Notes: a model not told the origin generated them from the sequence alone. Positions 2,122-56,540 are shown, counted from the stretch's first letter. The stretch: 64,000 nucleotides of DNA from an uncultured Micavibrio sp. (GCA_964551435.1 CAZKBS010000001.1:79565-143564), one strand, 5' to 3'. Translations and numbers: made by a program.

Positions 2122-2370
2122 GCCTTGCTGCAGGCCGGCATCTTTCGCAATAAAATCAAATCCTGACCCCGTTTTCTTGACATAATTTGAAAGCGGGCGT
2201 AGACTTTTCGGATATTTTACGAGTCTGACCCGCCCCGCCGTGCAGCGCCGCCTTTGACCAGCCGGCAGCGGCTTTTGCAAACGGGAAGACATCCAGATGC
2301 CGCCCGTGCCCAGCGCGCCTGCTGCATCCGTTTCACTGACAACCGAAAAAAGAATAAGAGGGTATACCAG

Positions 2371-5288: not shown

Positions 5289-5474
5289 GCTGCGTTTCCG
5301 GTTGGAGAATAAACGAGGGTTTATACCTTGTAAGGAGGCATTTTTGTTATGTCAATGTTTCTGCGGAAATGCTGCAACGCGGGAAATATAAAAACACAAA
5401 GCGGATTGATAGAGATATTTTATTTCTATAGAGTGAATAAAATTCTTATTTTATGCACGCGAAGGGATTCAGCC

Positions 5475-8252: not shown

Positions 8253-8462
8253 GACGGCGGCCCCTTTCGGATAAACGGTGAGAGGACTCTAGCACAGTTA
8301 AGGCATTAACACATTGTTTTTATACGCGTTTTGCTTCCGGCCGATTGGATATGAGTTCACATAACGCGATTGACATAGAGCAGCAGGGATGCTACAAAGA
8401 ATTCCAATAAAAACTTTTAAAAACAAAGTATAAGATTCCCCGCGACGAGGAGCTGTGACACC

Positions 8463-11702: not shown

Positions 11703-11990
11703 CTAACTTTTTTTGGAACTACGCATCGCGCCGGGACGCTTCAGTCCCGGCTTGGGCGCCGTGTCATTCGGATACATTTCGGCACGCATCTGCTGCACTT
11801 CCCGCGCCATGCGGTTGAAGGCATCCAAAAGCTGGCGGTTGACTTGCAACAGCTGGCGCTGTTCATCGCGCAAGGATTTCACCTCATCGCGCAGCGCCTT
11901 GATGTCGCGCTGGTTGTCAGCCACCCCTTTGGCAGAGGTTTTGGCGTTATCGATGATCTCGCGCTTGTCGTAGTAGCTCCACTCGCTCAT
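11703..11990 (-). CDS. Small coiled-coil protein, paralog of the upstream gene
   Basis: 95 aa. Heptad-like core (ALRDEVKSLRDEQRQLLQVNRQLLDAFNRMAREVQQMRAEM) and a basic tail (KPGLKRPGAMRSSKKS). Confidence 0.5.
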   Translation of the reverse strand: MSEWSYYDKREIIDNAKTSAKGVADNQRDIKALRDEVKSLRDEQRQLLQVNRQLLDAFNRMAREVQQMRAEMYPNDTAPKPGLKRPGAMRSSKKS

Positions 11991-12268
11991 GGCAGGCTCC
12001 TGCGACGCGGCGGCTTTTGCGGGCGCAGGCTGGCCGGTTTTTGCATGGACGGCTTCAGGTCTTCGCGCAGCCCGCGAATTTCGCGCGTCATCCCCTCGAG
12101 AGCATCCGCGACGCGGTTGAAAGCACGCGCCATCTCGGCATCGTTTTTTATACCCTGATCGGATTGTTCCTTGAGCAGGCGGAGAAGTTTATGCGTGACC
12201 TCGTCGCCACTGCGCACCGCCGCGAGAATCTCGCGCACAACCTTCAGGTCTGTACTATCCATCGGCAT
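11987..12268 (-). CDS. Small coiled-coil protein, paralog of the downstream gene
   Basis: 93 aa. Shares the AFNR[VM]A...R..L/M core and a basic tail (SLRPQKPPRRRSLP). ATGA overlap with the next gene. Confidence 0.5.
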   Translation of the reverse strand: MPMDSTDLKVVREILAAVRSGDEVTHKLLRLLKEQSDQGIKNDAEMARAFNRVADALEGMTREIRGLREDLKPSMQKPASLRPQKPPRRRSLP

Positions 12269-19605: not shown

Positions 19606-21045
19606 TCAATCGGCGTAGGGGTTGCGGCTGGTCTTGATAATTAGACGCACCGGTGTTGCGGGCATATTGAAATCGCGGCGCAGGCCGTTGATGAGATAAC
19701 GCTGGTGCGTCTCCGGATAATCGTCGGGGCGCGATACCCATATCGCGAATGTCGGCGGGCGGGCCTTGATCTGCGTCATGTAGCGCAGCCGGTTCTGGCG
19801 GCCATTGACCAGCGGTGCGGGGTTTTGCGATTCCATCATGCGCAGCCAACGGTTGAGCTTGCCGGTGCCGATGCGGTGGTTCCACAGGTTATAAACATCC
19901 AGTACGGCCTGCATGACCTTTTCGACGCGCTGGCCCTTGATGGCCGACACGGTCACGATGGGAATATCCCGCACTTGCGCCAGCTGGGTCGACAGCTGGT
20001 GTTTCAGCTCTTCCAGTGTCGCTTCTTTTTCCTTGACCAGATCCCACTTGTTGACGACGACGACCATAGCGCGTCCCTCGTCCACGATGTGGCCGGCAAT
20101 GGTCAAATCCTGTTTTTCAAACAGGGTTTCACCGTCAATCACCATCACCACAACCTGCGCCAGACGAATGGCGCGCAGCGTGTCTTCGACCGCCATGCGC
20201 TCGATGTAGTTCACAACCTTCGCCTTGCGGCGCAGACCTGCCGTATCGACAAGGCGCAGCTGACGTCCGCCAAATTCCCAATCCACATGGATGGCGTCGC
20301 GGGTGATGCCCGCTTCGGGGCCGGTCATGGCGCGCTCTTCGCCCAAAATGGCGTTGAGCAGCGTCGATTTGCCGACGTTGGGGCGCCCTGCAATCGCGAT
20401 TTTAATCGGCTTGCTGAGATCCTCGGCCGGAACCTCTTCGTCACCAAAACCGGTTTCGTCGCCTTCGTGATATTTCTGGAACAGAACCTCGATGTCTTCT
20501 TCGGGCTCTTCGGCGTTCAGTGCGGCAAAGCGCGCGGCTTTGGCTTCGGCTTCTTCGACTTTGGGCTTCAAAATCTCGTAAAGCTCTTCCATGCCAAGGC
20601 CGTGTTCGGCGGAAATGGCAATCGGCTCGCCAAGGCCGAGTTCGTAGGCCTCATACAAACCCTCCGCGCCGCTGCGGCTTTCGCATTTATTGACGACAAG
20701 GGCGCTCGGAATATTCTGACGGCGCAGCCAGTCGGCAAAGTGCCTGTCCATCGGCGTGATGCCGGTACGTGCATCGACCACCAGCAGCGCCATGTCAGCC
20801 CGCGCAAGCGCGCGTTCGGTCTGTTGGCGCATGCGCCCCTGGATGGAGCTGTCAAAACTTTCTTCGAGACCCGCCGTATCGATGACGCGGAAACTGAGAC
20901 CCATCAGATGGGCATCCGCTTCGCGCCAGTCACGTGTCAGGCCGGGGGTGTCGTGCACCAGCGCCAGCTTTTTACCCGCCAGCCGGTTGAACAGCGTCGA
21001 TTTGCCGACGTTGGGGCGGCCGATGATGGCGAGGGAAAAAGTCAT
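19606..21045 (-). CDS. der: Ribosome-associated GTPase Der (EngA)
   Basis: Two GTPase domains (IIGRPNVGKSTLFN and IAGRPNVGKSTLLN) and a KH-like C-terminus. Confidence 0.95.
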   Translation of the reverse strand: MTFSLAIIGRPNVGKSTLFNRLAGKKLALVHDTPGLTRDWREADAHLMGLSFRVIDTAGLEESFDSSIQGRMRQQTERALARADMALLVVDARTGITPMDRHFADWLRRQNIPSALVVNKCESRSGAEGLYEAYELGLGEPIAISAEHGLGMEELYEILKPKVEEAEAKAARFAALNAEEPEEDIEVLFQKYHEGDETGFGDEEVPAEDLSKPIKIAIAGRPNVGKSTLLNAILGEERAMTGPEAGITRDAIHVDWEFGGRQLRLVDTAGLRRKAKVVNYIERMAVEDTLRAIRLAQVVVMVIDGETLFEKQDLTIAGHIVDEGRAMVVVVNKWDLVKEKEATLEELKHQLSTQLAQVRDIPIVTVSAIKGQRVEKVMQAVLDVYNLWNHRIGTGKLNRWLRMMESQNPAPLVNGRQNRLRYMTQIKARPPTFAIWVSRPDDYPETHQRYLINGLRRDFNMPATPVRLIIKTSRNPYAD

Positions 21046-21096
21046 GGTGCAGGTATATCCGTTTCTATTGTTATCAGCGCGGCGCGCTTTTTATTG

Positions 21097-22443
21097 TCAG
21101 CGCCACGCGCTGAGGGTGCCGTTTTGCGACAACACGATCATCGTGCCACCCGCCACCACCGGCGCCATCAGCGTTTCGCCGGGCAAACGGTGGGTTGCCA
21201 GCACGCTGCCGTCCAGCGGGCTCAGCACCAGCATGTCGCGGTTGCTGCCTGTCACAATCAGATGATCGCTCGCAAGGATCGGGCCGGCCCAGACCACGGG
21301 CTCGCTGTGTTTTTTGTCGGCCCAGCGCGGCAAATCGGCAACCCAGCGCACTTCGCCGGTCGCACGTTTGAGCGCGACGACCTGCTGTTCGGTACTGATG
21401 CTGAAAACCGTATCGCCCGCCACCCACGGCATTTCGGAGCTGCCCAGTTCACGCTGCCAGCGGCGCTGGCCCGTGACCTGATCCAGCGCCACCATGCGGC
21501 CGCTGTAGCTGACGGCGAAAACCATACCGCGGTCGATGACCGGCAGGCCGCGCACATCGGCAATCGCCGACAGCGCGCCGCCACGGCGCACCGCAGACAG
21601 GTTATCCTGCCACACGACCTGTCCGTTTTCAGGACGCAGGCCAAATAATTCACCCGAAGAAAGCGGCAGCACGACCAGCGTTTCATCCGCCGCGACAGAC
21701 GCGGAACCGAGCAGGTTCGTCGCCTCGCTGACGCCGGCGTATTGCCAAATCAGCTTGCCATCGGCGGCGCCATAAACCATCAGACGGTTATCGAGGGTCA
21801 CCAGATACACGCGGCCATCCATGACCGTCGGGGCGCTGCGCGCAGGCGCGGGCAGAACCGCGCGCCAGATATCGCCGCCCGTTGCGGGGTCAACCGCCAT
21901 CAGGTGTTTGTATCCCGCCGTCACATAAAGCTTGCCTTCATGCCACGCAAGACCGCCGCCGACAGCGCCGCTTTTCCCCTCGCCGCGCGGCACCACGGAC
22001 TGGCGCCACTGGCGTTTGCCGTTTTCAAGCGCGAAGGCGCTGAGGTTGCCTTCGGTATCCAGCGTATAAACGCGGTCTTCCGCGACGACCGGAATGGCCG
22101 TCAGGGGCGTGCGTTTATCGCCGCCGGCACCGATTGACTCGCTCCAGACTTTTTTGAAGGTCGGCGAAAGCGCGACATGTGTCATCGCATGGTTGGGATA
22201 TCCGCCCACCTGCGGCCAGAATTTATTTTCCCAGATTTCGGGCAGGGCGATATCTTCCGCCTCCAGCGCCGGATTGGGCACAAGGTCTTTTTGCAGTTGC
22301 AAAATCGACAGGCGTTCGCCGGGCAGCGGCGGGTCTTTGTCGCTGCCGAAGATTTTTTCCGCGTTTTCGCAGCCGCTCAGCAGCAGCGCGCAGGCGAGCA
22401 CACAGGCCAGCCCCGCAGGGGAAGAAGCGCCGCGCCGTTTCAT
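21097..22443 (-). CDS. bamB: Outer-membrane assembly lipoprotein BamB (PQQ-like beta-propeller)
   Basis: Lipobox LLLSGC. Repeated propeller blades. Conserved yfgM-bamB-der order. Confidence 0.75.
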   Translation of the reverse strand: MKRRGASSPAGLACVLACALLLSGCENAEKIFGSDKDPPLPGERLSILQLQKDLVPNPALEAEDIALPEIWENKFWPQVGGYPNHAMTHVALSPTFKKVWSESIGAGGDKRTPLTAIPVVAEDRVYTLDTEGNLSAFALENGKRQWRQSVVPRGEGKSGAVGGGLAWHEGKLYVTAGYKHLMAVDPATGGDIWRAVLPAPARSAPTVMDGRVYLVTLDNRLMVYGAADGKLIWQYAGVSEATNLLGSASVAADETLVVLPLSSGELFGLRPENGQVVWQDNLSAVRRGGALSAIADVRGLPVIDRGMVFAVSYSGRMVALDQVTGQRRWQRELGSSEMPWVAGDTVFSISTEQQVVALKRATGEVRWVADLPRWADKKHSEPVVWAGPILASDHLIVTGSNRDMLVLSPLDGSVLATHRLPGETLMAPVVAGGTMIVLSQNGTLSAWR

Positions 22444-23090
22444 CCGCGCCCCGCTTCACCGGTGGATTGCATGTAAAGGCCGCGCAGCGTGGTCGCGCGC
22501 GCGCGCACTTCGTCGGGCGCATCGGTGCTGCCGGTAATAACGCCGAGGGTATCGACGGCTTCTTTCATTTTGTTTTCACGCGCAAACAGCAGCGCCTCCA
22601 TTTCCAGCGCAGAATAACGCCAAACGCTTTTGGGGCCCGTCAGCGGTTTCAGCGCCGCATGCAGTTTTAGCGCATCGCCCGTGTCAAGACGGTGGCTGAC
22701 CGCCAGCAGCGCCGCCAGATCACGGTAAACGCCATCAAGGCCGCGCGTCGCGGCGATGCCGTCGTAAACCGCAGCGGCCTGTTCGCCTTCGCCTTTTTGC
22801 GCGTGAATGGCCGCCGTCACAAAACCTGCGAGGGCGCTATGCGTGCCGCGGCCTTCGCCCGCCAGTTTTTTGAGCGCCGCTTCGTCCGCTGCATCCATGG
22901 CGTTGAACAGTTCGTACGTCGCCTGCGCATCGCGGTTAAGCGTATGCTGGCGCCAGTAGCTGAGCGCGGCGGTCATCACAATCGCCAGAATGATGCCGCC
23001 GACGATCCAGGCGCGGTTTTCAATCCATAACGCCTTGAGACGTTCTTCGCGCATATCATCCTGAATTTGCCTCATTACATCGTCGGACAT
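22440..23090 (-). CDS. YfgM-like membrane-anchored TPR protein
   Basis: N-terminal TM (AWIVGGIILAIVMTAALSYW) followed by a helical-repeat domain. Sits upstream of bamB. Start moved to ATG 23090 with aggaag RBS. Confidence 0.6.
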   Translation of the reverse strand: MSDDVMRQIQDDMREERLKALWIENRAWIVGGIILAIVMTAALSYWRQHTLNRDAQATYELFNAMDAADEAALKKLAGEGRGTHSALAGFVTAAIHAQKGEGEQAAAVYDGIAATRGLDGVYRDLAALLAVSHRLDTGDALKLHAALKPLTGPKSVWRYSALEMEALLFARENKMKEAVDTLGVITGSTDAPDEVRARATTLRGLYMQSTGEAGRG

Positions 23091-23329
23091 CGGGGCTTCC
23101 TGTCTGTTTGTTCTCATATCTTTGAAATGCCGCCCTAAAATTGGCCCAAAGACCCCGCCGGGTCAAGGAAAACCCCGCCCCGGCCGCGCTTAAAACCACC
23201 TTTAAAATTGACATAACGCGGGGTTGACGCCCCCAAAGACGGATGATATGACGGAAAGCATTCTTTCAACAGCTTTGAACACCCCACGCGGCGCCCGAAG
23301 GCGGCGCGTCCCGTACAGGAGCGATATTC

Positions 23330-23920
23330 ATGCCCTCTTTCCGCGACATTTTCCGCCGCGCCAGCGAATCCGAAAAAGCGCAAAAGCGTATGGAAGCCGC
23401 CAATAAAACAAACCTGCGCGGCACCAACGAGCTTTTCCGCGCGATTGAACGCGGCGCGCACAGCGACGTGGTTAAACTGATCGAGGACGGCGCCGATATC
23501 CACGCACGCAGCAAATCGCAAAGCATCTTGTCCAACATGATGTTCCGCGTGCCCTATGCCGCGGGCTCGACGCCGCTGCATGCGGCGGCGCTGCTGGGGC
23601 ATTTCAATATTGCCGATACGCTGTTGCGCCACGGCGCCGACCCGAATGTCCGCAACAACGAAGGCCACACCGCGCTTGATTACGCGCTGATGAGCCACGC
23701 GTGGTTCGAGGATAACCTTGCCAAAAAGCAACAATCCAGCATCACGCTGGCGCGCTTTGTCAGCGCGGCCGCCGATAAGGTCAATATCTATCAGCGGACC
23801 ATCACCCTGCTGCTCGCGCGCAACGGCAAACCCGGCCTGCTGGAGCTGCCGGAGCGGTTCAAAGAAATGATCCCCGCCAAACGCCGCAAAGCCCCACAGG
23901 AAGACGGCCCCGGGCTTTAA
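23330..23920 (+). CDS. Ankyrin-repeat protein
   Basis: GSTPLHAAALLGHFNIADTLLRHGADPNVRNNEGHTALDYAL. aggag RBS. Tail AKRRKAPQEDGPGL. Confidence 0.85.
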   Translation: MPSFRDIFRRASESEKAQKRMEAANKTNLRGTNELFRAIERGAHSDVVKLIEDGADIHARSKSQSILSNMMFRVPYAAGSTPLHAAALLGHFNIADTLLRHGADPNVRNNEGHTALDYALMSHAWFEDNLAKKQQSSITLARFVSAAADKVNIYQRTITLLLARNGKPGLLELPERFKEMIPAKRRKAPQEDGPGL

Positions 23921-23936
23921 GCCTTTTCAAAAAATA

Positions 23937-24434
23937 TCAGGAACAGCCCGGCCCGCGTGGCGGACGGGGACGCAGGCGAAATGCATCTGCACCGCCAGCG
24001 GCATCTATGTGCGCCTCGAGCGCCGCGCGCGCAACTGCATCAAAAGCGGACTGCGCGGTGGTTGTTTCCTCGCCGGTCTCTTCTGCGGCGGTGCCGGATA
24101 TCGGGGCTTCGGGCGTCAGGTCGTCTTCATCATGGCGACGCGCGCCGCAGCTGCGCAAGTATTCGGCAATTTGCGGATGGTCTTCGGCAATCGCGGTATC
24201 CAGCGGAAAATCACCCACGCGGTCGGCGACGTTGAGCTTCGCCCCGCCGCCCACCAGCACCTTGACCATCAAAAGATCGCCCTGAATGACCGCTTCGTGC
24301 AGCGGGGTGATATCGGGGCGGTCTGCCGCGACGTTCGGGCTTTCACCCGCTGACAACCGCGCCCGCACGGCGCTGACGCTGCCCGATTGCACGGACTTGA
24401 GAAAGGCCTGTTCCTGTGCGCTGAGTCGTGACAT
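23937..24434 (-). CDS. Ankyrin-repeat protein
   Basis: ITPLHEAVIQGDLLMVKVLVGGGAKLNVADRVGDFPLDTAI. Tail FRLRPRPPRGPGCS. Confidence 0.85.
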   Translation of the reverse strand: MSRLSAQEQAFLKSVQSGSVSAVRARLSAGESPNVAADRPDITPLHEAVIQGDLLMVKVLVGGGAKLNVADRVGDFPLDTAIAEDHPQIAEYLRSCGARRHDEDDLTPEAPISGTAAEETGEETTTAQSAFDAVARAALEAHIDAAGGADAFRLRPRPPRGPGCS

Positions 24435-24439
24435 GGCGG

Positions 24440-25213
24440 TTACGGCTGCGGCGGTTTTTTGCCGCCGGTTTTGGGCGGACGTGTGCCAAGACGGAAATCC
24501 GGCTGCACATAGGATTCAAGCTGCGCGCGATGCGCGGCGGCCATGAAGGCATCCACATCATGCGCGGCGGCATAATCTTTGGGCAGGGCATCCCACAGTT
24601 TGCGGAACTCATCGGGTGCGTCTTTCCAGACATCGACATCCATCAAAAGCGGCAGCTGGCCCTGCTGGCAAATCTTCAAAATCGTGCTGTCACCATCGGC
24701 ACCGCGCGCAGTCAGATCGCCTGCGGTAAGTTTATCGGGCGTGCCGGCCGCCGCGCGTGCCAGCGTCATGACAGCGGCAAGCCCGCCGCGACTGACCGCA
24801 TGGTGAAACTGGTCACTGAGGTTTTCAAAACTGGCCCGGCGCATATCGGCAAGAGAGCCAAACGGCAGCGCGGTTTCCGCACGCACCGCAGAGACCGCCA
24901 GCGCGGCAAGGCGATAGGCGGCGGCATCATGGCCCATCGCGCGGGCCAGCTGTTCGGGCGTACGGCCATCGGCGTCATAGGATACGGCAGGCACGCCGCG
25001 CGCCACAAAGGCGGTAATCGTTTCCGTCTCGCCCCACAGCGCCGCAAAATGCGTCAGGCTGCGGCCCGCTTCATCCGTCCAGCGCGGGTCAAGACCGGCA
25101 TCCAGCGCCGCCAGCAAATCTGCGCCGCGGCGCGCATCGATCATATCGGCGATATTTTCGTCGCTAAAACGCGGCGCGGGTGGCGTTGTTTTCGGGGGCT
25201 GTTTGCGGGCCAT
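24440..25213 (-). CDS. Ankyrin-repeat protein
   Basis: GRSLTHFAALWGETETITAFVARGVPAVSYDADGRTPEQLA. Tail FRLGTRPPKTGGKKPPQP. Confidence 0.75.
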   Translation of the reverse strand: MARKQPPKTTPPAPRFSDENIADMIDARRGADLLAALDAGLDPRWTDEAGRSLTHFAALWGETETITAFVARGVPAVSYDADGRTPEQLARAMGHDAAAYRLAALAVSAVRAETALPFGSLADMRRASFENLSDQFHHAVSRGGLAAVMTLARAAAGTPDKLTAGDLTARGADGDSTILKICQQGQLPLLMDVDVWKDAPDEFRKLWDALPKDYAAAHDVDAFMAAAHRAQLESYVQPDFRLGTRPPKTGGKKPPQP

Positions 25214-25261
25214 GTTATTTCATCCTGCTGCGCGCGCGTTTTACAGCGCACCGGTTGTTTT

Positions 25262-26497
25262 TTAAGTCGTGCCCGGACCGCGCGGTTTGCGCGGGCGGGG
25301 CTTGAGGCGGATATCGTCCGCCTGTTCGTCGGCACGGCGGTTCAGCTCTTCGCGCTGGTATTTATAAATATCGCGCACGGCCGCGTCGAAATCGACCTGC
25401 ACCTTGGCGCGCGGGTCCGCATCGATATAGGGGCGCAGCGCCAACATTTCATCCAGCCGGTCGCGCCAGACCACTGCGGTAAACAGCGACGACAGCCGGC
25501 GGCTGGCGATGAAGGCTTCAAGCAGCGTTTCACCGCCATAATAATCGCTGCGTTTCAGCAAATCCGCGCGGGTCAAACCGCCCTTGCTGCGCGCTATCGC
25601 ATCCATCACGAAATCTATCTTGCCCATGCGCACAAGGAAATGCAGCGCCGTCGTTTTGCCATCGAGGCCGATGGGCACATAGGCGCGCAGATCGGTAATC
25701 GTGAGCTCTTCGGGGCGGCGGCTGAACAGCGTGCGCGCGCCCTTGGCATCCAGCGTTTTATAAATCTCGTGCCAGGCGGTGCCGAGCAAATCCTTGGCCC
25801 CTACCCACCACAGCATATCAAGCGACGTTTCGCCGCGTCCGCTTACGGCATGCACATCCGCGCCCGCCGCCAGAAGCGCGTTGACCTTGCCGGTATCGCA
25901 GCGTGCAATCGCCAGATGCAAGGCGGAGTAGCGCGCGCGCCCTTCGGTATTTTCAATCGCATTGGCATCCGCGCCAAGGCGCAGGGCGCGCTCCACCTCT
26001 TCGGTCGTGCCTTTATGGATGGCGCGCATCAGGACCTTGTCGATGCGCGTCTGGTAATTGCTGACCAGCACTTCGTCGGGCAGGTAGCGCGGGTCGTTGC
26101 CGATCAGCTGGAAATTCGCTCCCGCATCGGACAGCAGCCGGATACCCAGCGTGAAATGGTTGCGATAAGCAGCATCGAGCGCGCTGGCGCCGTCGTTGTC
26201 GGTATCCGACAGTTCGGCGTCATATTCGATCAGCAGCTTCAAAAGCGCGGCATCGCCCCGCTCCACCGCTGCATGCACGGGCGGCAAACCGCCCGGCAGG
26301 ACGCGGTCAGGGCAGGCGCCCGCTTTCAGCGCCGCTTCAATTTCCGCATGGTCGATGACGCCGCGTTTCATCGCGGCAAGAAAACGGTTATCCGCCGCTT
26401 CCTGCGCCGCCGTTTTCACAGCATCAGCCACCGTACTGCAAAGAAGCTTTTGCAGCGGCTGGTCGTCGTCGATGTCACGCGGCTGGCGGGGGGACAC
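25262..26497 (-). CDS. Ankyrin-repeat protein (multi-repeat, 411 aa)
   Basis: LPPVHAAVERGDAALLKLLIEYDAELSDTDNDGASALD and YSALHLAIARCDTGKVNALLAAGADVHAVSGRGETSLD. Tail IRLKPRPRKPRGPGTT. Confidence 0.85.
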   Translation of the reverse strand: MSPRQPRDIDDDQPLQKLLCSTVADAVKTAAQEAADNRFLAAMKRGVIDHAEIEAALKAGACPDRVLPGGLPPVHAAVERGDAALLKLLIEYDAELSDTDNDGASALDAAYRNHFTLGIRLLSDAGANFQLIGNDPRYLPDEVLVSNYQTRIDKVLMRAIHKGTTEEVERALRLGADANAIENTEGRARYSALHLAIARCDTGKVNALLAAGADVHAVSGRGETSLDMLWWVGAKDLLGTAWHEIYKTLDAKGARTLFSRRPEELTITDLRAYVPIGLDGKTTALHFLVRMGKIDFVMDAIARSKGGLTRADLLKRSDYYGGETLLEAFIASRRLSSLFTAVVWRDRLDEMLALRPYIDADPRAKVQVDFDAAVRDIYKYQREELNRRADEQADDIRLKPRPRKPRGPGTT

Positions 26498-26720
26498 GCG
26501 GCCTATCCTTTCGCGGAATTATGTATTCATGGAAGGTAGTTTTTTACCATAGGCGCAGGGGGCGGGTAAACCCGAAATCACCCGAAAAACAGCATTGAAA
26601 CCCCCGCAGCGCAGCATCAGCAGCTTCGCTTTGCGATGGCGGTTTTGCTTGACGAATCTTGAATTTCCGTATTATTTTCATTTATACTCAAAAAGAGCAC
26701 AAATGAAAAGGAGGCGCCCC

Positions 26721-26969
26721 ATGTCCAAACCCGCCCGCGATTTCAGCAAAACCGCCTGCGTTCGGGAAACCCGCGCGCTTTGCAAAGTCATGGAGGCGCT
26801 CGCGGCCCTCGATGCCGACGGCCGCGCTTTCGTCCTTGGGACGGCAGCGGCGCGGCTAGGCGTACGGATCACCGCACCCGGCCCCGAAAAGCCTGCGAAA
26901 AAAGCCGTTGATAAAACCCACTGGTTCAGCGACACGCAGCCCTTCGGCCCGCGCAACGTTGATTGCTGA
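26721..26969 (+). CDS. Small hypothetical protein
   Basis: ATG at 26721 preceded by aaaaggagg. 82 aa. No family recognised. Confidence 0.4.
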   Translation: MSKPARDFSKTACVRETRALCKVMEALAALDADGRAFVLGTAAARLGVRITAPGPEKPAKKAVDKTHWFSDTQPFGPRNVDC

Positions 26970-27063
26970 AGCTGCGCGGGAATAAGGCCGCAATTTGCTT
27001 TATTTCCGCGCCGCCGCGCCCTAAAATGCCCCCGAGTTCAAAGAGACGCGCCAAATACGGGGG

Positions 27064-27396
27064 ATGCTCCGCGCCGATATGCTGCTTTACTTCAGGAACA
27101 AATTCGCGGGCAAGCCGACATTCAGCCAAGGGGAGCTTAGTCTCATCCTCGGCGTCTACGGCGAGCGCGTGAAGCGGGGCGAGTGGCGCGATTACGCCAT
27201 TGACTGCCTGCCGAATATGGCGGTGTTTTCGATTTTCCGGTCGTCGCGCGAAAACCCTATTTACTCCATCGCCAAAATTCCACCGCGCAGTTTTCTGAAA
27301 CAGGCGGAATATGTGGTCTATGAAGGGGGCAAGACCCTTCGTCAAAGCGCATCTCTGCGCGAAGTTCTGGAAGTGTTCGAGGATAAAAAGGCATGA
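27064..27396 (+). CDS. DUF2794-family protein
   Basis: FSQGELSLILGVYGERVKRGEWRDYAID, as recalled for alphaproteobacterial DUF2794. The true start may differ. Confidence 0.6.
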   Translation: MLRADMLLYFRNKFAGKPTFSQGELSLILGVYGERVKRGEWRDYAIDCLPNMAVFSIFRSSRENPIYSIAKIPPRSFLKQAEYVVYEGGKTLRQSASLREVLEVFEDKKA

Positions 27397-28190
27397 CGTT
27401 TTTTTCTTTGCGCCGCACATACCCGTTTCTGGCCGTATCGGTACTGGCGCTAGGTTTAACCCTCCCCGCCGCCGCGCAGGCTGCGGAGCAGATCAAATAC
27501 CTGTCCGACCCCGTCTACGAAAAAATGGCGCCGGAAGATCCGCACCCTATGGAAGATCTGGTGCTGATGGGCGAGGAAGGCGATGCGCGCGCGCAGTTCA
27601 TCCTTGGCGATTTGTATGGCAAGGGCAAGGGCGGGCTGCCGCGTAATATCAAAAAATCCCGCGAATGGTTTGAAAAAAGCGCGCGCCGAGGGTATGCGCA
27701 AAGCTTCATTCGTCTGGCGGCTCTCGAAAAGCGGGTCAAAAAGCCGGAAGATGCGTATAAATGGTACACGCTGGCCATCGATGCCTTGCCATCGGGCGAG
27801 CGTAAATGGGCGCAAACCGCGCGCGATGCGCTGGTCAAGGAACACAGCCTGACAGCTGCGCAAATCAAATCGGCGAAAGCCGCCGCGAGCGCATGGAAAA
27901 AGGCCGCCGCCGATGCCGCGGAAGCCGCCAAGAAAAAAGCCGCCGAAGAAAAAAAGCAGGACAAGAAAACCGACGCAAACATCATGACCGACGCGCTGCT
28001 GGTTGAACCCGCCGCCGGCGAAAGCAGCGAAGCGCCAGCCCCTGCCGCCATGCGCGCCGATGCAACACCCGCGGCAGAAACACTCCCCGCAGCCGATATT
28101 GCAGCCGCCCCCGATGCCGCCAGCACGCCGGCAGCCGAAGCCGCGCCCGCCGCAGCGCCCGCCACTGCTGCGGAAACGCCGGCCCCCTGA
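27393..28190 (+). CDS. Secreted Sel1-repeat protein with an Ala/Pro-rich tail
   Basis: Signal peptide (LALGLTLPAAAQA). Sel1 unit DARAQFILGDLYGKGKGGLPRNIKKSREWFEKSARRGYAQSF. Low-complexity C-terminal third. Confidence 0.7.
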   Translation: MTFFSLRRTYPFLAVSVLALGLTLPAAAQAAEQIKYLSDPVYEKMAPEDPHPMEDLVLMGEEGDARAQFILGDLYGKGKGGLPRNIKKSREWFEKSARRGYAQSFIRLAALEKRVKKPEDAYKWYTLAIDALPSGERKWAQTARDALVKEHSLTAAQIKSAKAAASAWKKAAADAAEAAKKKAAEEKKQDKKTDANIMTDALLVEPAAGESSEAPAPAAMRADATPAAETLPAADIAAAPDAASTPAAEAAPAAAPATAAETPAP

Positions 28191-28244
28191 TTTTACCGCT
28201 TCAATTCCACCAAGACACCATCTGCAAACCCAAGGAGAGATGAC

Positions 28245-29474
28245 ATGAGCAAGATTAAAGTCAAAACCCCCGTCGTCGAGATGAACGGCGATGAAATGAC
28301 CCGCATCATCTGGGACATGATTATCGACCGTATGATTAAGCCGTATCTCGATATCGATCTCAAATCCTATGACCTGTCGATTCAATCGCGTGACGCCACC
28401 AACGACCAGATCACGGTTGACGCCGCCAACGCCATCAAACAATACGGCGTCGGCATCAAATGCGCGACCATCACCCCCGACGAAGCGCGCGTCGAGGAAT
28501 TCAAGCTCAAGAAAATGTGGAAATCGCCGAACGGCACCATCCGCAATATCCTGAACGGCACCGTGTTCCGCGAGCCGATCATTTGCAAAAACATTCCGCG
28601 TCTGGTCACCACATGGACGAAGCCGATTGTTGTGGGCCGTCATGCGTTCGGCGACCAGTACAAGGCGACCGACGTCAAAATTCTCGGCCGCGGCAAGCTG
28701 ACCATGACCTTCACGCCCGATAACGACGGCACGCCCGAAACATGGGAAGTGTATGATTTCGCCAAAGGCGGCGGTGTCGCCATGGGCATGTATAACACCG
28801 ATGAATCCATCGCGGGTTTCGCGCGCAGCTGCTTCAACTACGGCCTTGCCCGCGGCTATCCGGTGTACCTGTCGACCAAGAACACCATCCTCAAAGCCTA
28901 TGACGGCCGCTTCAAGGATATTTTCCAGGAAATTTTCGATGCGGAATTCAAGGCGAAATTCGATGCCGCAGGACTTGTCTACGAACATCGCCTGATCGAC
29001 GACATGGTCGCCTCCGCCCTGAAATGGGAAGGCGGTTTCCTCTGGGCTTGCAAAAACTACGACGGCGACGTGCAGTCCGACAGCGTCGCGCAGGGTTTCG
29101 GCTCGCTCGGCCTTATGACGTCGGTGCTGCTGACGCCCGACGGCAAAACGGTTGAAACCGAAGCCGCGCACGGCACCGTCACGCGCCACTACCGCCTGCA
29201 CCAGCAGGGCAAGCCGACATCGACCAACCCCATCGCGTCTATTTTCGCATGGACGCAGGGCCTGAAATACCGCGGCCAGTTTGACGGCACGCCGGATGTC
29301 ATCGCCTTCGCCGAAACGCTGGAGCGTGTGTGCATCGACACCGTCGAAAGCGGCGACATGACCAAGGACCTCGCGCTGCTGGTCGGGCCGGAGCAAAAAC
29401 ACCTGACGACGGAGCAATTCCTCGACAAGCTCATCGCCAACCTTGATCGCGCCATGCAGAAAAAAGCGGCATAA
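28245..29474 (+). CDS. icd: NADP-dependent isocitrate dehydrogenase (about 405-aa eukaryote-like type)
   Basis: [23 protein letters not shown]...[41 protein letters not shown]. Confidence 0.93.
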
Positions 29475-29530
29475 AAAAACGCATAAAGCCAAAAGCCGCA
29501 CAGGTTGATTGCTTTATTGCCTGTATAAAA

Positions 29531-35049: not shown

Positions 35050-35910
35050 TTATGCCGCCGCTTTGTAATCCAGCCCGACATCGAAATTGGGGGCGCTGTG
35101 GGTGATCGCGCCGGAGGAAATCAAATCCACGCCCGTCGCGGCAATTTCGGGGATGCGGGCAAGAGTAACGCCGCCCGATGCCTCCACAACCGCGCGGCCG
35201 CCGACCATGGCCACGGCCTGTTTCATCTGCTCGCTTGTCATGTTGTCGAGCATGACGATATCCACGCCTTCGTCCAGCACTTCGGCCAGCTGGTCGAGCG
35301 TATCGACTTCAACCTCGATTTTGACGGTATGGCCGATATGCGCCTTGGCGTTGCGGATGGCATTGCGCACACCGCCCGACATGGCGATGTGGTTGTCCTT
35401 GATCAGCACGGCATCATCAAGGCCGTAGCGGTGCGGGATACCGCCGCCAATCATCACGGCATATTTCTGCACGGCGCGCAGCCCCGGCAGGGTTTTGCGC
35501 GTCGCGGCGATTTTTGCCTTGTGATTGCCGACGGCACGTACCATTTTCAGCGTGAGTGTCGCGATGCCCGACATGTGGCCCATGAAATTGAGCGCCACAC
35601 GCTCCGCCGTCAGAATAGACCGCGCGCGGCCTTCGACTTTCATCACCTCGTCGCCTTTCTTGACGTCCGCGCCTTCGCGGATCAGACGGGTGATTCTAAG
35701 GTTGTCATCGACCATGCGAAACGCTGCCTCGGCGATATCAAGGCCGGCGATGCGGCCCTCTTCACGCGCCGCAATCACCACGCAGGCACGCGCCGATTCA
35801 GGCACCGTGCTGTCGGATGTGATATCGCCCGCGCGGCCCAGATCTTCGGCCAGCGCCATGCGCACAAGGGGGTCGATGATGAAGGGGGACAGGGGGGCGA
35901 CGCCGGTCAT
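35050..35910 (-). CDS. nadC: Nicotinate-nucleotide pyrophosphorylase (quinolinate PRTase)
   Basis: ALAEDLGRAGDITS...RKTLPGLR...DNHI...MLDNM. Start at the ATGA overlap with the nadB stop. Confidence 0.9.
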   Translation of the reverse strand: MTGVAPLSPFIIDPLVRMALAEDLGRAGDITSDSTVPESARACVVIAAREEGRIAGLDIAEAAFRMVDDNLRITRLIREGADVKKGDEVMKVEGRARSILTAERVALNFMGHMSGIATLTLKMVRAVGNHKAKIAATRKTLPGLRAVQKYAVMIGGGIPHRYGLDDAVLIKDNHIAMSGGVRNAIRNAKAHIGHTVKIEVEVDTLDQLAEVLDEGVDIVMLDNMTSEQMKQAVAMVGGRAVVEASGGVTLARIPEIAATGVDLISSGAITHSAPNFDVGLDYKAAA

Positions 35911-37559
35911 GCGACTTTCTCCGTTTGGGTGTTTTGCAGCGCGGCAGGCACAGCGACAAGGCTGGCGGCAACCGCTTCGGTTTCCTTGAGCGTGACAAAG
36001 CTGCGTTTTTGCAGGGCGCGCACGGCTTGCGGATAATCGCTGCGGCAATGGCCGCCGCGGCTTTCGCGGCGCATCAGCGCCGATACCGCAATCATACGGC
36101 AGAGAAGCGCCATATCGGCCGTGCGGGCATCGCGTGTTTCGGCAGCAGCGCCAAGGCGCATGAAATCACGGATAGCCGCCGTCAGGCCCGCTTCGCTGCG
36201 GATGACGCCGACCAGCTCGCTCATGATATGGCGCAGGATATCACGCTCGACCACCGGTTCTTTGGCGACAGGCAGCAGACGCACGTCGGTCAAATCGGCT
36301 TTGGGCGCAGCGGTTTTGCCTGCAATCGCCACAGCGATATCTTCGGCGGCACGCGCGCCCATCACAACGGCTTCCATCAGCGAGTTGCTGGCAAGGCGGT
36401 TCGCGCCGTGCAGTCCGGTGGCCGCGCATTCACCCGCCGCCCACAGGCCCGTAAGACTGCTGCGGCCGTTCAGATCAGTGGCGATACCGCCCATGTGGTA
36501 ATGCACCGCCGGCATGACGGGGATAAGGTCGCGCTGCGGGTTCAGACCTGCACGGCCCGCAGCGGAAATCAGCGCGGGGAAATGTGCGGTATCGATGTGG
36601 CGGCAATCCAGATACACTTTCTGGCCTTTTTGCATTTGCGCGAAAATACCGCGGCTGACCACGTCGCGCGGCGCCAGCTCGCCCGCCTCGTGGTAATCCA
36701 GCATGAAACGCTCGCCGCGGCTATTCAGCAAATAAGCGCCTTCGCCGCGCAGCGCTTCGGTCGCGAGCGGCGCGGGGTCTTCGCCGATATCCAGCGCCGT
36801 CGGGTGGAATTGCACGAATTCAAGGTCAGACAGCACAGCACCCGCGCGCGCCGCCATGGCGACACCACGGCCAATCGCATGCAGCGGGTTGGTGGTCGCG
36901 GCAAACAAACCGCCGACCCCGCCCGTGGCCAGCAAAACAGCCTTGCTCAGAAAAACAACCGGTGCGTTATCGTCCAGACGGCGGGTCAGCACACCGCTGA
37001 CGGCGCCCGTGCGCTCGCCGCCTTCGCGCAGCAAACGCTCTGCCGATACGCCGGCAACGAATTCGATATCCGGCGTCTGGCGCACGGCTTCGCTGAGCGC
37101 GCGCATCAATTCTGCCCCGAAGCCATCGGCCGCAGCGGCTTTGAGCACGCGGCGGCAGGCATGGCAGGCTTCGCGGTTGAGGCGGTAGGCGCCTTCTTCA
37201 TCACGCTCGAAGCGCACGCCGTATCTGGCCAAGATTTCGATATATTGCGGCGCGGCCTCGACCAGCGTTTTAACCGCCATGATATCCGCCGTGCCCGCCG
37301 CCGCTTTCAGCGTATCGGCAATGTGGTTGTCGGTGGTATCTTCGGGTGCCACAACCGCGGCGATGCCGCCCTGCGCCCAGGCGCTGGCGCATACGCCGCC
37401 CAGCTGTTTTTCACTAAGAACGATGATGCGCGTTTTCTTGCCGTCCGCCTGTTTATCCGCGGCTAGGGTCAGCGCCGCGAAAAGCCCCGCCGCGCCGGAG
37501 CCAACGATGACAACATCGGCCGTTCTGGTTTCAATACTTGCGGTTTTCTGGGTGGTCAT
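35907..37559 (-). CDS. nadB: L-aspartate oxidase
   Basis: FAD motif VVIVGSGAAGLFAAL. Also HYHMGGI and GLWAAGECAATGLHGANRLASNSL. Confidence 0.92.
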   Translation of the reverse strand: MTTQKTASIETRTADVVIVGSGAAGLFAALTLAADKQADGKKTRIIVLSEKQLGGVCASAWAQGGIAAVVAPEDTTDNHIADTLKAAAGTADIMAVKTLVEAAPQYIEILARYGVRFERDEEGAYRLNREACHACRRVLKAAAADGFGAELMRALSEAVRQTPDIEFVAGVSAERLLREGGERTGAVSGVLTRRLDDNAPVVFLSKAVLLATGGVGGLFAATTNPLHAIGRGVAMAARAGAVLSDLEFVQFHPTALDIGEDPAPLATEALRGEGAYLLNSRGERFMLDYHEAGELAPRDVVSRGIFAQMQKGQKVYLDCRHIDTAHFPALISAAGRAGLNPQRDLIPVMPAVHYHMGGIATDLNGRSSLTGLWAAGECAATGLHGANRLASNSLMEAVVMGARAAEDIAVAIAGKTAAPKADLTDVRLLPVAKEPVVERDILRHIMSELVGVIRSEAGLTAAIRDFMRLGAAAETRDARTADMALLCRMIAVSALMRRESRGGHCRSDYPQAVRALQKRSFVTLKETEAVAASLVAVPAALQNTQTEKVA

Positions 37560-37596
37560 GGTTCACATCCTCCGGCCTTTACCGGTTTTTCAGTGG

Positions 37597-38619
37597 TTAG
37601 ATTTTCACGGCCAGCATGCGTTCAACTGCTGCGCGGGCGCGATCGGCGACGGCAGCATCAACGTGCACTTCGGTGGTGCGCGTTTGCAGGCTTTTCAAAA
37701 TTGCCGGCAGGGTGATGCGCTGCATGTGCGGGCAGAGATTGCAGGGTCGCACGAATTTCACATCGGGGTTCGCGGCCTGCAGGTTGTCGGACATGGAGCA
37801 TTCGGTAATCAGCACCACGCGGCTCGGACGTTTATCGGTAACGTAATCGGCCATGGCTTTGGTCGAACCTGCAAAATCGCATTCGGCGACAACTTCGGGC
37901 GGGCATTCGGGGTGACCCAGAACCACTGCATCCGGCCATGCCTTGCGCATTTTTTTGATGTCGGCGGAGGTGAATTTTTCATGCACCTCGCAGGCGCCTT
38001 CCCAGGTCAGGATTTTCTTTTTGGTTTGTTTGGCGATGTTGCGCGCCAGATATTTGTCGGGGATCATCAAAACCTGATCTTGCGGCAGGCTTTCGACGAT
38101 TTTCAGCGCATTGGACGACGTGCAGCAGATATCCGACTCTGCCTTCACATCGGCCGACGTATTGACGTAGGTCACAATCGGCGTATTCGGATATTTTTCA
38201 CGCAGCAGGCGTACATCCGCCCCCGTGATGGAGGAGGCGAGCGAGCAGCCCGCGCGCATATCGGGGATAAGCACGGTTTTTTGCGGGCTCAGGATTTTCG
38301 AGGTTTCGGCCATGAAGTGAACACCCGCCTGTACAATCAGGTCGGCTTCGGTCTTGGCCGCTTGCTGCGCCAGTTGCAAGCTGTCGCCTGCGAAGTCCGA
38401 CACGCAATGGAAAATTTCCGGCGTCATATAGTTATGCGCCAGAATGACCGCGCCCATGTCACGCTTCAGGCGGTTGATTTCGAGGATGTAGGGGGCGTGC
38501 ACGCTCCAGTCCAGTTCGTTCACCACGTTCTTCACGCGTTCGTACAGCGGCGCGGTTTCGCGCGCGACGGCGGGCGTGAATTTCAAATCGGCTTCGGGAC
38601 GGATGACGGTATCGAACAT
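37597..38619 (-). CDS. nadA: Quinolinate synthase
   Basis: [11 protein letters not shown]...GDSLQLA...[11 protein letters not shown]...CPHM. Start could be 38619 or 38637. Confidence 0.9.
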
Positions 38620-38665
38620 TCTTTTTCTCCTTGGCACCGCGGTGTGTTGTTTGACGGCGTTTTGC

Positions 38666-38768
38666 TCTCTATGAGCATTTTATATACTCTATTAGAGCAT
38701 AAGTAAAGGTATTTATCAATAAAATGAGTATAAGTATTTTATTGTTATATTACAGATAGATAAATCAT
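38666..38768 (-). promoter_or_regulatory. AT-rich promoter/operator region upstream of nadA, with repeated half-sites
   Basis: About 100-nt AT-rich island in a GC-rich genome. Contains TATGAGCAT ... TTAGAGCAT and the palindrome CTCTAtTAGAG. Candidate NadQ operator. Confidence 0.4.
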
Positions 38769-38889
38769 GGCCGCGCCTGCAAAACCAGCGCCAAAACATG
38801 TCCCCTGCCCCCAACAGGTGCGAATCATAGAGAAAGCGCGCGGGCGCCCCGCCTTTGACCTATGAAAAACGCTTTGCTAGAGTGCGCGC

Positions 38890-39771
38890 ATGCGTTTCAC
38901 TGACCATTTCAAAAAAGCCGTCGGCCTGTGGCCGCCGAAGGGCCCTTATACCGCGCTGAGACAGATGCTGTCCGGCGGCGGTGATGTCACGCATATGCCC
39001 GCGCTGCTGCGTGAATACCCCGATGCCGCGCGCTGGGAGAAAAAAGGCGACATGCAGCCGCTGCATTACGCGCTGTGGCAACGCAACTATGCCGCCGCCG
39101 AAATTTTGCTGGAACATGACCATAGCCTCCTCCGCGATGCGGGCGACGATGGCGTGACGATTGTGCACCGCTATGCCGCGCACGGCGAAACCCATGCGCT
39201 GCAATTTCTGGTTCATCAGGGCGCCGATTTGAATTTGCAAGACCGCAACGGCCGCACCGCGCTGCATCACGCGGCGATGAACCGTTACAACGGGGGGAAT
39301 ATCGGGCTGCTGCTGCGCTATGGCGCGCAAGCGGACATACGCGATTCAGACCGCCGCACCCCCCTGATGATAGCGCTGATGACGGGTAACAAGGCGGGCG
39401 CGGAGGCGCTGATTAAAAAACCGTTCGATGCGCGGCAAACCGATGCCTTTCGCCGCACGCTGCTGATGGCGGCGGCGGAAACCGGCATGGATCATTTAAT
39501 GCCGCAGCTGCTGCGTGCGGGCGCGGATATCCATGCGGTCAATCCGCTGGGCGAAACCGCGCTTGGTCTGGCCATCAAGAAAAAACACGCGCGCGCCGCG
39601 CTTTTGCTGGTCGAGGCCGGCATGCCCGCGACCTTTGACTATAAATGGCGCAAGAAACTCGGCAATCTCATCCGCCCGCTGGAGGGCAGCGAGCCTGCGC
39701 TGCGCCGCCTTGGCCTGCGCCCGTCGCCAAAGAAAAAGGCGAGCTTTGCGCAAGGACCCAAACCTTATTAA
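38890..39771 (+). CDS. Ankyrin-repeat protein (about 6 repeats)
   Basis: MQPLHYALWQRNYAAAEILLEH, GRTALHHAAMN, RRTPLMIALMTGNKAGAEALI, GETALGLAIKKKHARAALLLVEAG. Tail RRLGLRPSPKKKASFAQGPKPY. Confidence 0.85.
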   Translation: MRFTDHFKKAVGLWPPKGPYTALRQMLSGGGDVTHMPALLREYPDAARWEKKGDMQPLHYALWQRNYAAAEILLEHDHSLLRDAGDDGVTIVHRYAAHGETHALQFLVHQGADLNLQDRNGRTALHHAAMNRYNGGNIGLLLRYGAQADIRDSDRRTPLMIALMTGNKAGAEALIKKPFDARQTDAFRRTLLMAAAETGMDHLMPQLLRAGADIHAVNPLGETALGLAIKKKHARAALLLVEAGMPATFDYKWRKKLGNLIRPLEGSEPALRRLGLRPSPKKKASFAQGPKPY

Positions 39772-39792
39772 CCCTGATAGCGCAGGCGGCGT

Positions 39793-40542
39793 TTAGCGCT
39801 GCGGCCCCTTGCTGTCTTTTTTCGGCGCGGCGGCGGGCGGCGTATAGGCCGTGCGCTGTTCATGAATGGTCTGACCGGGGATGCCGTATTTATCACGGAA
39901 CGAGCGCGACAGACCGCCCGCCGGATCCCAGCCGCCATGCGTGAGCGCGCTATCCAGTTCACGCGTCAACTGCGCGAAGGCTTCGGGTATTTTATGGCGG
40001 TGATCGGCCAGCTGGTTCATGCTCGCCTGCACGCTGATGCTGCAGCGGTAACCGGCCAGACCCGCCTGATTGAACATCGACGACAGCTGCTGCTGGCTGA
40101 GGACCAGTGCGGTGATATCGGTTTTTTGTTCGTTCATGAACTTCATATAGTCCATGAACTTGAAATAATGCTGATGTCCTTCCAGCACGAATTCACGCGC
40201 GATATCGACCTTGAGCGCATCGACCTTGCCGTCGGCGCCGAAACTGCAGGCGGGTACGTATTGCTTGCCGTTGAATTCGATCAGCAAAGCTTCACCGCGG
40301 TCGGCCATGGCGATGAACTCTTGCGCGCTCACGCCTTGTTTTTTCGCGGCTTCCTCCACGCTCAGGGTCGGCTGGGTTTGCAAAAATGCTTCGGCATCGG
40401 CATAGAGCCTGCGGTAGGTATCCGGCCCTGCCATGACGCGCGCTTCGATGCCTGTATATTTCGGCAAGGCAGCGATCAGGTCATCAAGCGGGCGGGCGGT
40501 TTTAAAAATGCGCGTACCGTCGTAGGGGTTTTTGTCGGTCAT
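39793..40542 (-). CDS. Hypothetical protein with a basic C-terminal tail
   Basis: 249-aa ORF. No family recognised. Ends in PPAAAPKKDSKGPQR. Confidence 0.45.
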   Translation of the reverse strand: MTDKNPYDGTRIFKTARPLDDLIAALPKYTGIEARVMAGPDTYRRLYADAEAFLQTQPTLSVEEAAKKQGVSAQEFIAMADRGEALLIEFNGKQYVPACSFGADGKVDALKVDIAREFVLEGHQHYFKFMDYMKFMNEQKTDITALVLSQQQLSSMFNQAGLAGYRCSISVQASMNQLADHRHKIPEAFAQLTRELDSALTHGGWDPAGGLSRSFRDKYGIPGQTIHEQRTAYTPPAAAPKKDSKGPQR

Positions 40543-40664
40543 GGTGCGGCTCCTGCTGCAGGCTGTCCGCGTTTTGCACGCGGGACTTTTTGTAAATCAC
40601 GATGTATTATGACATGCCTGTTATGGCATGTTTTCAAAAGACCTTCAATACCTTGGAAAATATA

Positions 40665-43086: not shown

Positions 43087-43158
43087 CGGAAGGAATATCC
43101 TGAACGAGGCATGGGAACTTTTTTGCAAGCTCCAAGATAATACGTCCGCGCAAAAGTT

Positions 43159-47775: not shown

Positions 47776-47795
47776 TTGAATAAGGAGACCACGTC

Positions 47796-53641: not shown

Positions 53642-53655
53642 GAAAACACCCTTTC

Positions 53656-56420: not shown

Positions 56421-56479
56421 ATCCAGAAATACCCCCGTCAGACGCGCCCCGATCGTCACCGGAATCGCTGGTTGACACT

Positions 56480-56540
56480 AAACTTATTCTTTCATTCTAT
56501 CACATTTATCTAAAATGTGATATATTTCAAAAATAAGTTT
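56480..56540. promoter_or_regulatory. Nested inverted repeat in the AT-rich region upstream of the four-paralog operon
   Basis: Outer arms AAACTTATT / AATAAGTTT (56480-88 / 56532-40). Inner arms ATCACATTT-atcta-AAATGTGAT (56499-56521). Confidence 0.5.

Follow-up and report, generated by a model that had tools for sequence, protein, structure and literature searches.

Four conserved ankyrin-repeat genes of an uncultured Micavibrio encode candidate substrates of a Dot/Icm-like type IV secretion system

What might four neighboring genes for ankyrin (Ank)-repeat proteins do inside a housekeeping region of an uncultured Micavibrio-lineage alphaproteobacterium? The four genes lie side by side at positions 23330 to 26497 of a 64-kb stretch of DNA with ~67 genes (the window, by which we mean this stretch at its full length), next to the yfgM-bamB-der operon, and a preliminary description had taken them for a locally amplified and diversified family of effectors in a bacterium that lives inside cells or with amoebae. 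From comparisons of the window with its relatives, we conclude that they are instead four distinct, vertically inherited Ank-repeat proteins of a bacterium with a genome of ~2.1 Mb, and propose that the cluster encodes candidate Ank-repeat substrates of a type IV secretion system (T4SS), a known kind of protein. The fuller reading, in which all four would carry a basic C-terminal signal and be exported by a type IVB system, we hold to have about an even chance of being right. The part of the preliminary description that saw effectors here was strengthened by the lack of signal peptides and by two features that it had missed, a conserved C-terminal tail and a Dot/Icm-like locus; the part that saw local amplification was rejected.

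The open reading frame (ORF) list reproduced exactly the four genes, their strands, and the spacers of 5 nucleotides (nt) between B165 and C257 and 48 nt between C257 and D411 that had been described. A196 (23330-23920, plus strand, 196 amino acids [aa]) has Ank repeats at aa ~30-125 and, as judged by eye, no signal peptide; B165 (23937-24434, minus strand, 165 aa) is a small Ank-repeat protein; C257 (24440-25213, minus strand, 257 aa) has two Ank repeats at aa ~33-112, then a C-terminal module and then a tail; and D411 (25262-26497, minus strand, 411 aa) has Ank-like helical repeats over its whole length. A196, B165, and D411 scored above the gathering scores of several Pfam Ank families, while C257 fell under the cut-off (Ank_2, 22.7 bits vs 27.3). 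Because residues 33-112 of C257 matched designed (DARPin) and natural ankyrins in the PDB (phmmer, E=3e-25) despite this score, and its profile aligned with that of D411 (see below), we concluded that all four are Ank-repeat proteins, as originally claimed.

The claims of three more Ank genes and two Sel1-repeat genes were also borne out. E293 (38890-39771, plus strand; Ank_2, 113.6 bits), F148 (62974-63420, minus strand), and G (63417-64000, minus strand, 207 aa, its N-terminus past the window end) all passed Pfam Ank thresholds, G in its 63417-63995 part, giving seven Ank genes among the ~67 of the window, an unusual density. Both Sel1 proteins (27393-28190; 41743-43128, the latter with 238 bits) were recognized by Pfam. 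Past the window end there is an eighth Ank protein of 347 aa (8114-9157 of the fetched locus L012, ~64264-65307 in window numbering), which has an N-terminal segment resembling a signal peptide or transmembrane helix and no basic tail, and is kept in the relative L097 (361 aa); it looks like a separate, Sec-exported class of Ank protein. Repeat proteins were also noted at 13-2121 (where a 1035-aa protein with faint TPR matches has its C-terminal part) and 2371-3480 (369 aa, sub-threshold HEAT_2), and these two raise the density of protein-protein interaction repeats in the window.

Did the four genes arise by recent duplication of one another? Pairwise blastp of the seven Ank proteins gave identities of at most 37%, in repeat units only, except that the C-terminal tails of B165 and D411 matched over 17 residues, and no DNA repeat longer than 26 nt was present in 22900-27100. 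Profile-profile comparison aligned C257 (residues 20-253) with D411 (155-409) over 231 columns (97.5% probability, E=5e-12), and related A196 and B165 to this pair through the repeats alone. The observation that the non-repeat sequence differs between the genes thus stood, apart from the B165/D411 tail match and the C257/D411 relationship seen by profiles. C257 corresponds to the C-terminal two-thirds of D411, of which it is a shortened and ancient paralog; the duplication predates the clade.

Relatives were found by a BamB search of a set with one genome for each GTDB species; the closest (84-90% BamB identity) and a second tier (67-68%) were Micavibrio-lineage metagenome-assembled genomes, and the same region with identical gene order was found on a 2,091,142-bp contig (ENA ERZ795108) and in several metagenomes. 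When the window proteins were compared by tblastn with the fetched loci of the relatives, A196, B165, C257, and D411 each had a separate ortholog, at the same position and in the same order, in five of them (L014, L015, L018, L019, and L023). A196, C257, and D411 were found in two others (L017 and L020), where B165 had no match by tblastn; an A-C-D three-gene arrangement occurred among the called genes of L093, with no B165 counterpart called. L021 (BamB identity 61%) had only the A196 ortholog, next to yfgM, and L022 had none of the four. A196 is thus the most widely retained, and one-to-one orthologs in syntenic position extended down to 67% BamB identity. In distant alphaproteobacteria DUF2794 lies ~0.2-4 kb upstream of yfgM, with only ~240 nt between the two in Oceanibaculum (L027), and tblastn revealed no homolog of any of the four Ank genes in the interval (other ankyrin genes in the larger gaps were not looked for). 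Since the four homologs were missing there and the orthologs within the clade were syntenic, we concluded that the cluster is an old, vertically inherited insertion.

The ratios of nonsynonymous to synonymous substitution rates (dN/dS), measured against three relatives, were 0.05-0.14 for D411, 0.10-0.35 for C257, 0.18-0.26 for A196, and 0.19-0.31 for B165, similar to those of the neighboring genes (0.03-0.30). D411 is the most conserved of the four and B165 the fastest evolving, and all four genes are real and under purifying selection. No tRNA was found in the 64 kb, nor any Rfam family, GC shift, or integrase, and the window has no rRNA gene; a horizontally acquired island was ruled out by the absence of GC deviation and of tRNA or integrase genes and by the clade-wide conserved position. 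Recent tandem amplification was likewise ruled out, by the confinement of blastp similarity to repeats, the lack of DNA repeats, the syntenic orthologs, and dN/dS values of 0.05-0.35. The picture of a locally amplified and diversified family therefore did not hold, as only C257 and D411 are paralogs, and anciently so. The wider view that a recently amplified, fast-diversifying effector family marks an intracellular or amoeba-associated bacterium draws on the high Ank and Sel1 density, the presence of a type IVB locus, and the paralogy of C257 and D411, but we judge it very unlikely given the same findings (no DNA repeat; no similarity outside the repeats except between C257 and D411; one-to-one synteny down to the second tier of relatives; low dN/dS; no tRNA, integrase, or GC deviation) and a lineage whose known habit is preying on bacteria rather than living inside cells (PMC3189940). 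For annotation, the genes are best regarded as four separate, conserved families, of which two have a common family-less module, and not as a recent expansion.

What the seven window Ank proteins have in common besides the repeats is their end: all finish in a disordered, basic, Pro/Gly-rich tail of the form phi-R/K-L-x-R/K-P...GPG or ...GGFxL. The tail of A196 (23870-23917, plus strand) is IPAKRRKAPQEDGPGL, and its orthologs keep LPE+F+..P++R+.P. A strict form of the motif, defined as [FILVMRY][RK]L.{0,2}[RK]P.{0,2}[RKP] within the last 25 residues, is present in the tails of B165 (FRLRPRPPRGPGCS; 23940-23981, minus strand), C257 (FRLGTRPPKTGGKKPPQP; 24443-24496, minus strand), D411 (IRLKPRPRKPRGPGTT; 25265-25312, minus strand), and E293 (RRLGLRPSPKKK...GPKPY). 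F148 ends in ...VRKGKGPGGFRL and G in ...ARRPQKPRGGGGFTL. In L097, a relative with 60% DotC identity, the ortholog of F148 ends in ...GKPPSPGGKTGGGFDL and that of G in ...GRKPKPPGNAGGFDL; the ends recorded for the two as a pair were GRKPKPPGNAGGFDL and FRGKPPSPGGKTGGGFDL.

The tail was retained in orthologs while the flanking sequence diverged, which is a stronger argument for it than the motif statistics given below. For D411, the elements [RK]-L-K-P-[RK] and K-P-x-G-P, separated by a variable linker, were kept in most of 23 ortholog clusters; most orthologs of B165 and C257 kept F-R/S-L...R-P/R, but the most divergent ones did not. Metagenomic homologs of the D411 module with 30-43% identity also ended in basic sequence (KLKL.., RLKPRPPAP, FRLP). 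Signal peptide and tail were mutually exclusive: the seven tailed Ank proteins had no signal peptide (N-termini judged by eye), whereas the 347-aa Ank protein and both Sel1 proteins had a signal peptide and no tail (also by eye). Basic Pro/Gly-rich tails were seen as well on orphans without a Pfam family, at 5349-6242, 8463-9761, 11703-11990, 11987-12268, and 39793-40542 of the window and at 1552-3381 and 3491-3955 of L012, examples being ...SLRPQKPPRRRSLP, ...GLKRPGAMRSSKKS, ...PPKGPRGPKPGY, and ...GRKNSGPGGPR; these orphans may, with the Ank proteins, form a single class of substrates.

Is there a machine in the same genome that could read such a tail? A Dot/Icm-like type IVB locus occupies 51031-61755 on the minus strand, with the order SLT-like protein, DotD, DotC, DotB, IcmT, TcpQ-domain protein (also called TcpQ/STN-domain), and four tandem paralogs. 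DotC was identified by the Pfam family T4SS_TraI and by its similarity to Legionella DotC (6x62, E=3e-33), and IcmT by a match to NF038220. DotD matched NF033882 with 117 bits, which is below the NCBIfam curated cut-off, and DotB matched TIGR02524 with 382 bits vs 238 for plasmid TraJ, again below the curated equivalog cut-off. A DsbG-like thiol-disulfide gene (61822-62706) and then the F148/G Ank pair directly adjoin the locus; it is flanked by RNase J and a gene for Fe-S assembly at one end and by a ClpB-like gene at the other, and no relaxase was in sight around it. The locus is chromosomal, and its gene order and flanking Ank genes are the same in L097. Because of the chromosomal position, the lack of a relaxase, and the conserved order, it looks like an effector-type type IVB machine rather than a conjugative element. 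DotC homologs were present on contigs of 181,345, 351,081, and 479,328 bp, sizes equal to those of contigs carrying Ank genes: the first two are the sizes of the L015 and L017 contigs with the Ank cluster, and the third is that of the contig of P0024, a D411 ortholog. The dot and Ank genes are therefore co-inherited, their co-occurrence on one contig in these three relatives being judged from the equal sizes.

The four tandem paralogs at the distal end of the locus (51031-56459, minus strand; 442, 434, 485, and 449 aa) have, as recognized by eye, N-terminal hydrophobic segments and the shared motifs W..W.E.L..MT.QL, RW.EY...FCDP, and NPS..E. They are kept as four copies in L097 (14265-19627) and have no Pfam or NCBIfam family; a phmmer search of the PDB that included the 442-aa paralog returned only DotC and a TcpQ-like lipoprotein, both of them matches to other proteins in the concatenated query. 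Also near the dot/Ank region, past the window end, is a 944-aa ClpA/ClpB-like double-AAA+ protein (L012 4142-6976), kept in L097, with a long basic C-terminal extension, ...AKKPRKPANDEAGKTPAPRKRKSGGNDFNA.

We propose that the Ank proteins would be made in the cytoplasm, that their tails would be recognized by the coupling apparatus of the Dot/Icm-type system ~25 kb away, that they would be exported in one step into a contacted cell, and that their ankyrin surfaces would there bind target proteins of the recipient. This scheme, with the tail as putative secretion signal and the type IVB system as its presumed machine, is consistent with the positive C-terminal charge that is a hallmark of alphaproteobacterial T4SS effectors (PMC3814349). 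It also resembles the Ank effectors of Legionella (AnkB/LegA) and Coxiella, which are likewise cytoplasmic proteins without signal peptides, many per genome, encoded by genes partly clustered and partly beside dot/icm, with export information likely in the extreme disordered C-terminus. The differences are that the host here belongs to the Micavibrio lineage of alphaproteobacteria and not to the Legionellales, that the recipient could be a bacterium, and that in place of an acidic E-block the tail is basic and Pro/Gly-rich (phi-R-L-x-R-P). Neither an F-box nor a CaaX nor any other motif specific to eukaryotes was seen in the Ank proteins. When the tails were tested for an E-block as defined in PMC5802825 and PMC3814349, they were net positive and had no EExxE; because the tail is basic and not acidic, the proteins do not qualify as Legionella-type effectors by their signal.

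This and several other points weigh against export by the dot system. The Legionella Dot/Icm signal is acidic, the opposite of the tail here, and is bound by basic patches on DotM, although DotM has been proposed to co-evolve with differing, non-acidic tails in other type IVB species (PMC5802825). Neither DotL/M/N nor DotA/G/F/H/O nor IcmS/W was seen in the ~75 kb examined of the 2.09-Mb genome, and another secretion system elsewhere is possible. The four-gene cluster does not adjoin the dot locus but lies ~25 kb away, and the organism has not been cultured. Disordered tails that are basic and rich in Pro can have other roles, such as in membrane, nucleic-acid, or SH3/importin binding. By the S4TE criteria (three or more H/R/K among the last 25 residues, with a net charge there of +2 or higher), 5 of the 7 Ank proteins but also 21 of 60 other window proteins were positive (Fisher p=0.07), so that generic basicity is not discriminating. 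Unlike it, the strict motif does discriminate: it was found in 5 of 684 six-frame ORF ends, namely those of B165, C257, D411, E293, and one spurious antisense ORF, against an internal background of 0.0026 per 25 residues, figures that are optimistic and indicative rather than a clean test because the motif was defined after the tails had been inspected. A cruder test (a net charge of +3 or higher and two or more Pro in the last 20 aa) picked out 6/7 Ank proteins vs 9/59 others (p=3e-4); five of those nine were orphans without a Pfam match, a further one was the 369-aa protein with sub-threshold HEAT_2 (hyp369), and one was flagged through a mis-set CzcD coordinate.

Could the tails be read by another machine? 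The tailed Ank proteins might be secreted by a system elsewhere, such as a VirB/D4-type IVA system, with the dot locus unrelated or doing another job. Tail segments such as RPRPPR and RPRKPR resemble the Arg-rich, positive signals of alphaproteobacterial VirB/D4 substrates (PMC3814349) and are unlike the acidic Legionella signal, and the sequence examined is a small part of the genome. Agrobacterium VirF and VirE2, Anaplasma AnkA, and the Bartonella Beps share with the proteins here an Arg-rich, net positive, unstructured C-terminal tail and an alphaproteobacterial host, and AnkA is itself an Ank-repeat protein. On the other hand, the secretion genes seen here are all of type IVB (DotB/C/D, IcmT), with no VirB/D4 gene in the part of the genome that was examined; a BID domain is absent, and the motif is more defined than in those effectors (phi-R-L...P...GPG, or GGFxL at the very end). 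Moreover, two tailed Ank genes abut the dot locus and are kept there in the relative with 60% DotC identity, and the dot locus and Ank cluster appear to share contigs in relatives, as judged from contig sizes. We therefore think a different exporter quite unlikely.

Or might the proteins never leave the cell? They could be cytoplasmic scaffold or regulatory ankyrins whose basic tail would hold them at the inner membrane, on nucleic acid, or on a shared partner. The lack of signal peptides would fit, as would conservation and selection like those of the housekeeping neighbors, the position of the cluster inside a housekeeping region, the 35% of other window proteins with basic C-termini by the generic criteria, and the similar tails on several small orphans. 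However, the near-confinement of the strict motif to Ank proteins, the clade restriction, the Ank density, and the co-inheritance with type IVB genes suit effectors better, and since distant alphaproteobacteria lack homologs between DUF2794 and yfgM, the four genes do not serve a core cellular function. We consider a purely cytoplasmic role fairly unlikely.

The lineage suggests one more role. M. aeruginosavorus, the relative that is in culture, lives as an obligate epibiotic predator on Gram-negative bacteria, and its genome paper reported no type III or IV secretion (PMC3189940). In another predator, Bdellovibrio bacteriovorus, the ankyrin protein Bd3460 neutralizes the bacterium's own DD-endopeptidases (PMC4686830), so that the proteins here might be self-protection (immunity) proteins of a predator. 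The likeness is that of an ankyrin-repeat protein in a predatory lineage. Bd3460 is reportedly exported to the periplasm and encoded beside its cognate DD-endopeptidase gene, and that system is not known to involve a conserved tail at the C-terminus. The four proteins here, in contrast, have no enzyme partner gene and do have a conserved basic tail; none of them is paired with a gene for a hydrolase or toxin, the neighbors being yfgM, an 82-aa ORF, and DUF2794. Because they have no signal peptide, as judged by eye from the N-termini, a periplasmic location is unlikely. PADLOC gave repeat-level matches only, and an immunity function seems to us very improbable. A role in anti-phage defense was also considered and rejected, as the PADLOC matches to Ank-containing models were partial and at the repeat level, with none for C257.

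If the dot system does export the tailed proteins, the recipient cell could be a protist, which would fit the density of Ank, Sel1, and TPR proteins together with a type IVB system as in Legionella, or a prey bacterium, which would fit the known lifestyle of the lineage. The X-T4SS offers a parallel for the latter, as a T4SS used in contact-dependent antagonism against bacteria that would fit an epibiotic predator; its effectors, however, have a ~120-aa XVIPCD domain and adjacent immunity genes, neither of which occurs here, and Ank repeats are atypical there. A bolder conjecture, that this uncultured Micavibrio branch injects conserved ankyrin and orphan proteins into bacterial prey, not eukaryotes, through a Dot/Icm-type system that reads a basic C-terminal signal of a kind not described before (phi-R/K-L-x-R/K-P...GPG / GGFxL), its charge the opposite of that of the Legionella E-block, is in our opinion unlikely to be right in all its parts. 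In the literature searched, no mention of ankyrins or of a type IVB system turned up for Micavibrio or the Micavibrionales. The window also encodes the hook-associated proteins FlgK and FlgL, nadA/B/C with an NrtR-type regulator, and the heme A synthase CtaA (regions 45688-48821 and 35050-41693). The presence of FlgK and FlgL implies that the bacterium is motile, and that of CtaA that it respires aerobically; nothing in the motility, NAD, and CtaA genes suggests an extremely reduced intracellular genome.

Residues ~250-395 of D411 (window 25313-25750, minus strand) have no Pfam match and form a family-less module with the signature W-R-D/G-R-L-D/E-E-M. An AlphaFold2 (AF2) model of D411 built from 24 orthologs (mean pLDDT, the predicted local distance difference test score, 82.3) had helical repeats throughout, with a long helix at 370-395 at the end and then the disordered tail; a C257 model from the single sequence was unusable (pLDDT 42). 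Foldseek matched the D411 model only to generic ankyrins and DARPins, and therefore gave no clue to the role of the module. A word-index search with the C-terminal part of D411 alone returned one fragment despite the existence of close orthologs, while a full-length query and an exhaustive search worked. The exhaustive HMMER search with the C-terminal part gave 38 proteins in two groups: one of ~370-390 aa with the Ank-plus-module architecture of D411, and one of ~480-670 aa, without Ank repeats, in which the module (W-x-G-R-x-x-E-M) occurs three to four times in tandem. Members of the second group (proteins P0050, P0053, and P0057-P0062) came from other metagenomes; most end in a basic tail, and none of the longer module proteins scanned had any Pfam family.

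The surroundings of the cluster are those that had been described. The conserved operon of yfgM-like, bamB, and der (19606-23090, minus strand) forms its housekeeping flank, with Pfam domains TPR_21 in the YfgM-like protein, PQQ_2 in BamB, and two MMR_HSR1 plus KH_dom-like in Der, and the cluster sits between yfgM and DUF2794-Sel1-icd. A196 is divergent from yfgM and convergent with B165, 16 nt away. D411, C257, and B165 look like one putative operon, with D411 first and B165 last, and A196 appears to be transcribed separately. The intergenic region 26498-26721, upstream of D411 and divergent from the 82-aa ORF, is the presumed promoter region of D-C-B; no minus-strand consensus promoter was found in it, and a promoter and terminator scan of the Ank cluster did no better than with shuffled sequence. 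The GC content of the cluster (58-64%) is similar to that of its surroundings. The 82-aa ORF (26722-26970, plus strand), between D411 and DUF2794, is gene-called in metagenome assemblies and detectable in close relatives only (90% in L002, 51% in L023); L093 carries a peroxiredoxin-like gene in its place. A 703-aa ORF (24428-26539, plus strand) that spans nearly the whole Ank cluster was rejected as a gene, being an antisense by-product of GC-rich coding sequence. Further long antisense ORFs occur at 19705-21648 (plus strand) and 27456-29501 (minus strand); all three, of 647-703 aa, are artifacts of coding sequence with ~60% GC.

Effector-translocating type IVB systems have been treated as a hallmark of the Legionellales and their relatives. 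The dot system of this bacterium, together with its tailed ankyrins and orphans, would offer a concrete candidate mechanism for cell-to-cell protein delivery in the Micavibrio lineage; alternatively, part of that lineage may live with eukaryotes. What these proteins would add to the known Ank candidates for T4SS substrates is a predator lineage, a defined basic motif associated with an apparent type IVB system, and a family-less module. A basic rather than acidic signal on a type IVB system, if true, would also bear on the co-evolution of DotM and its substrates.

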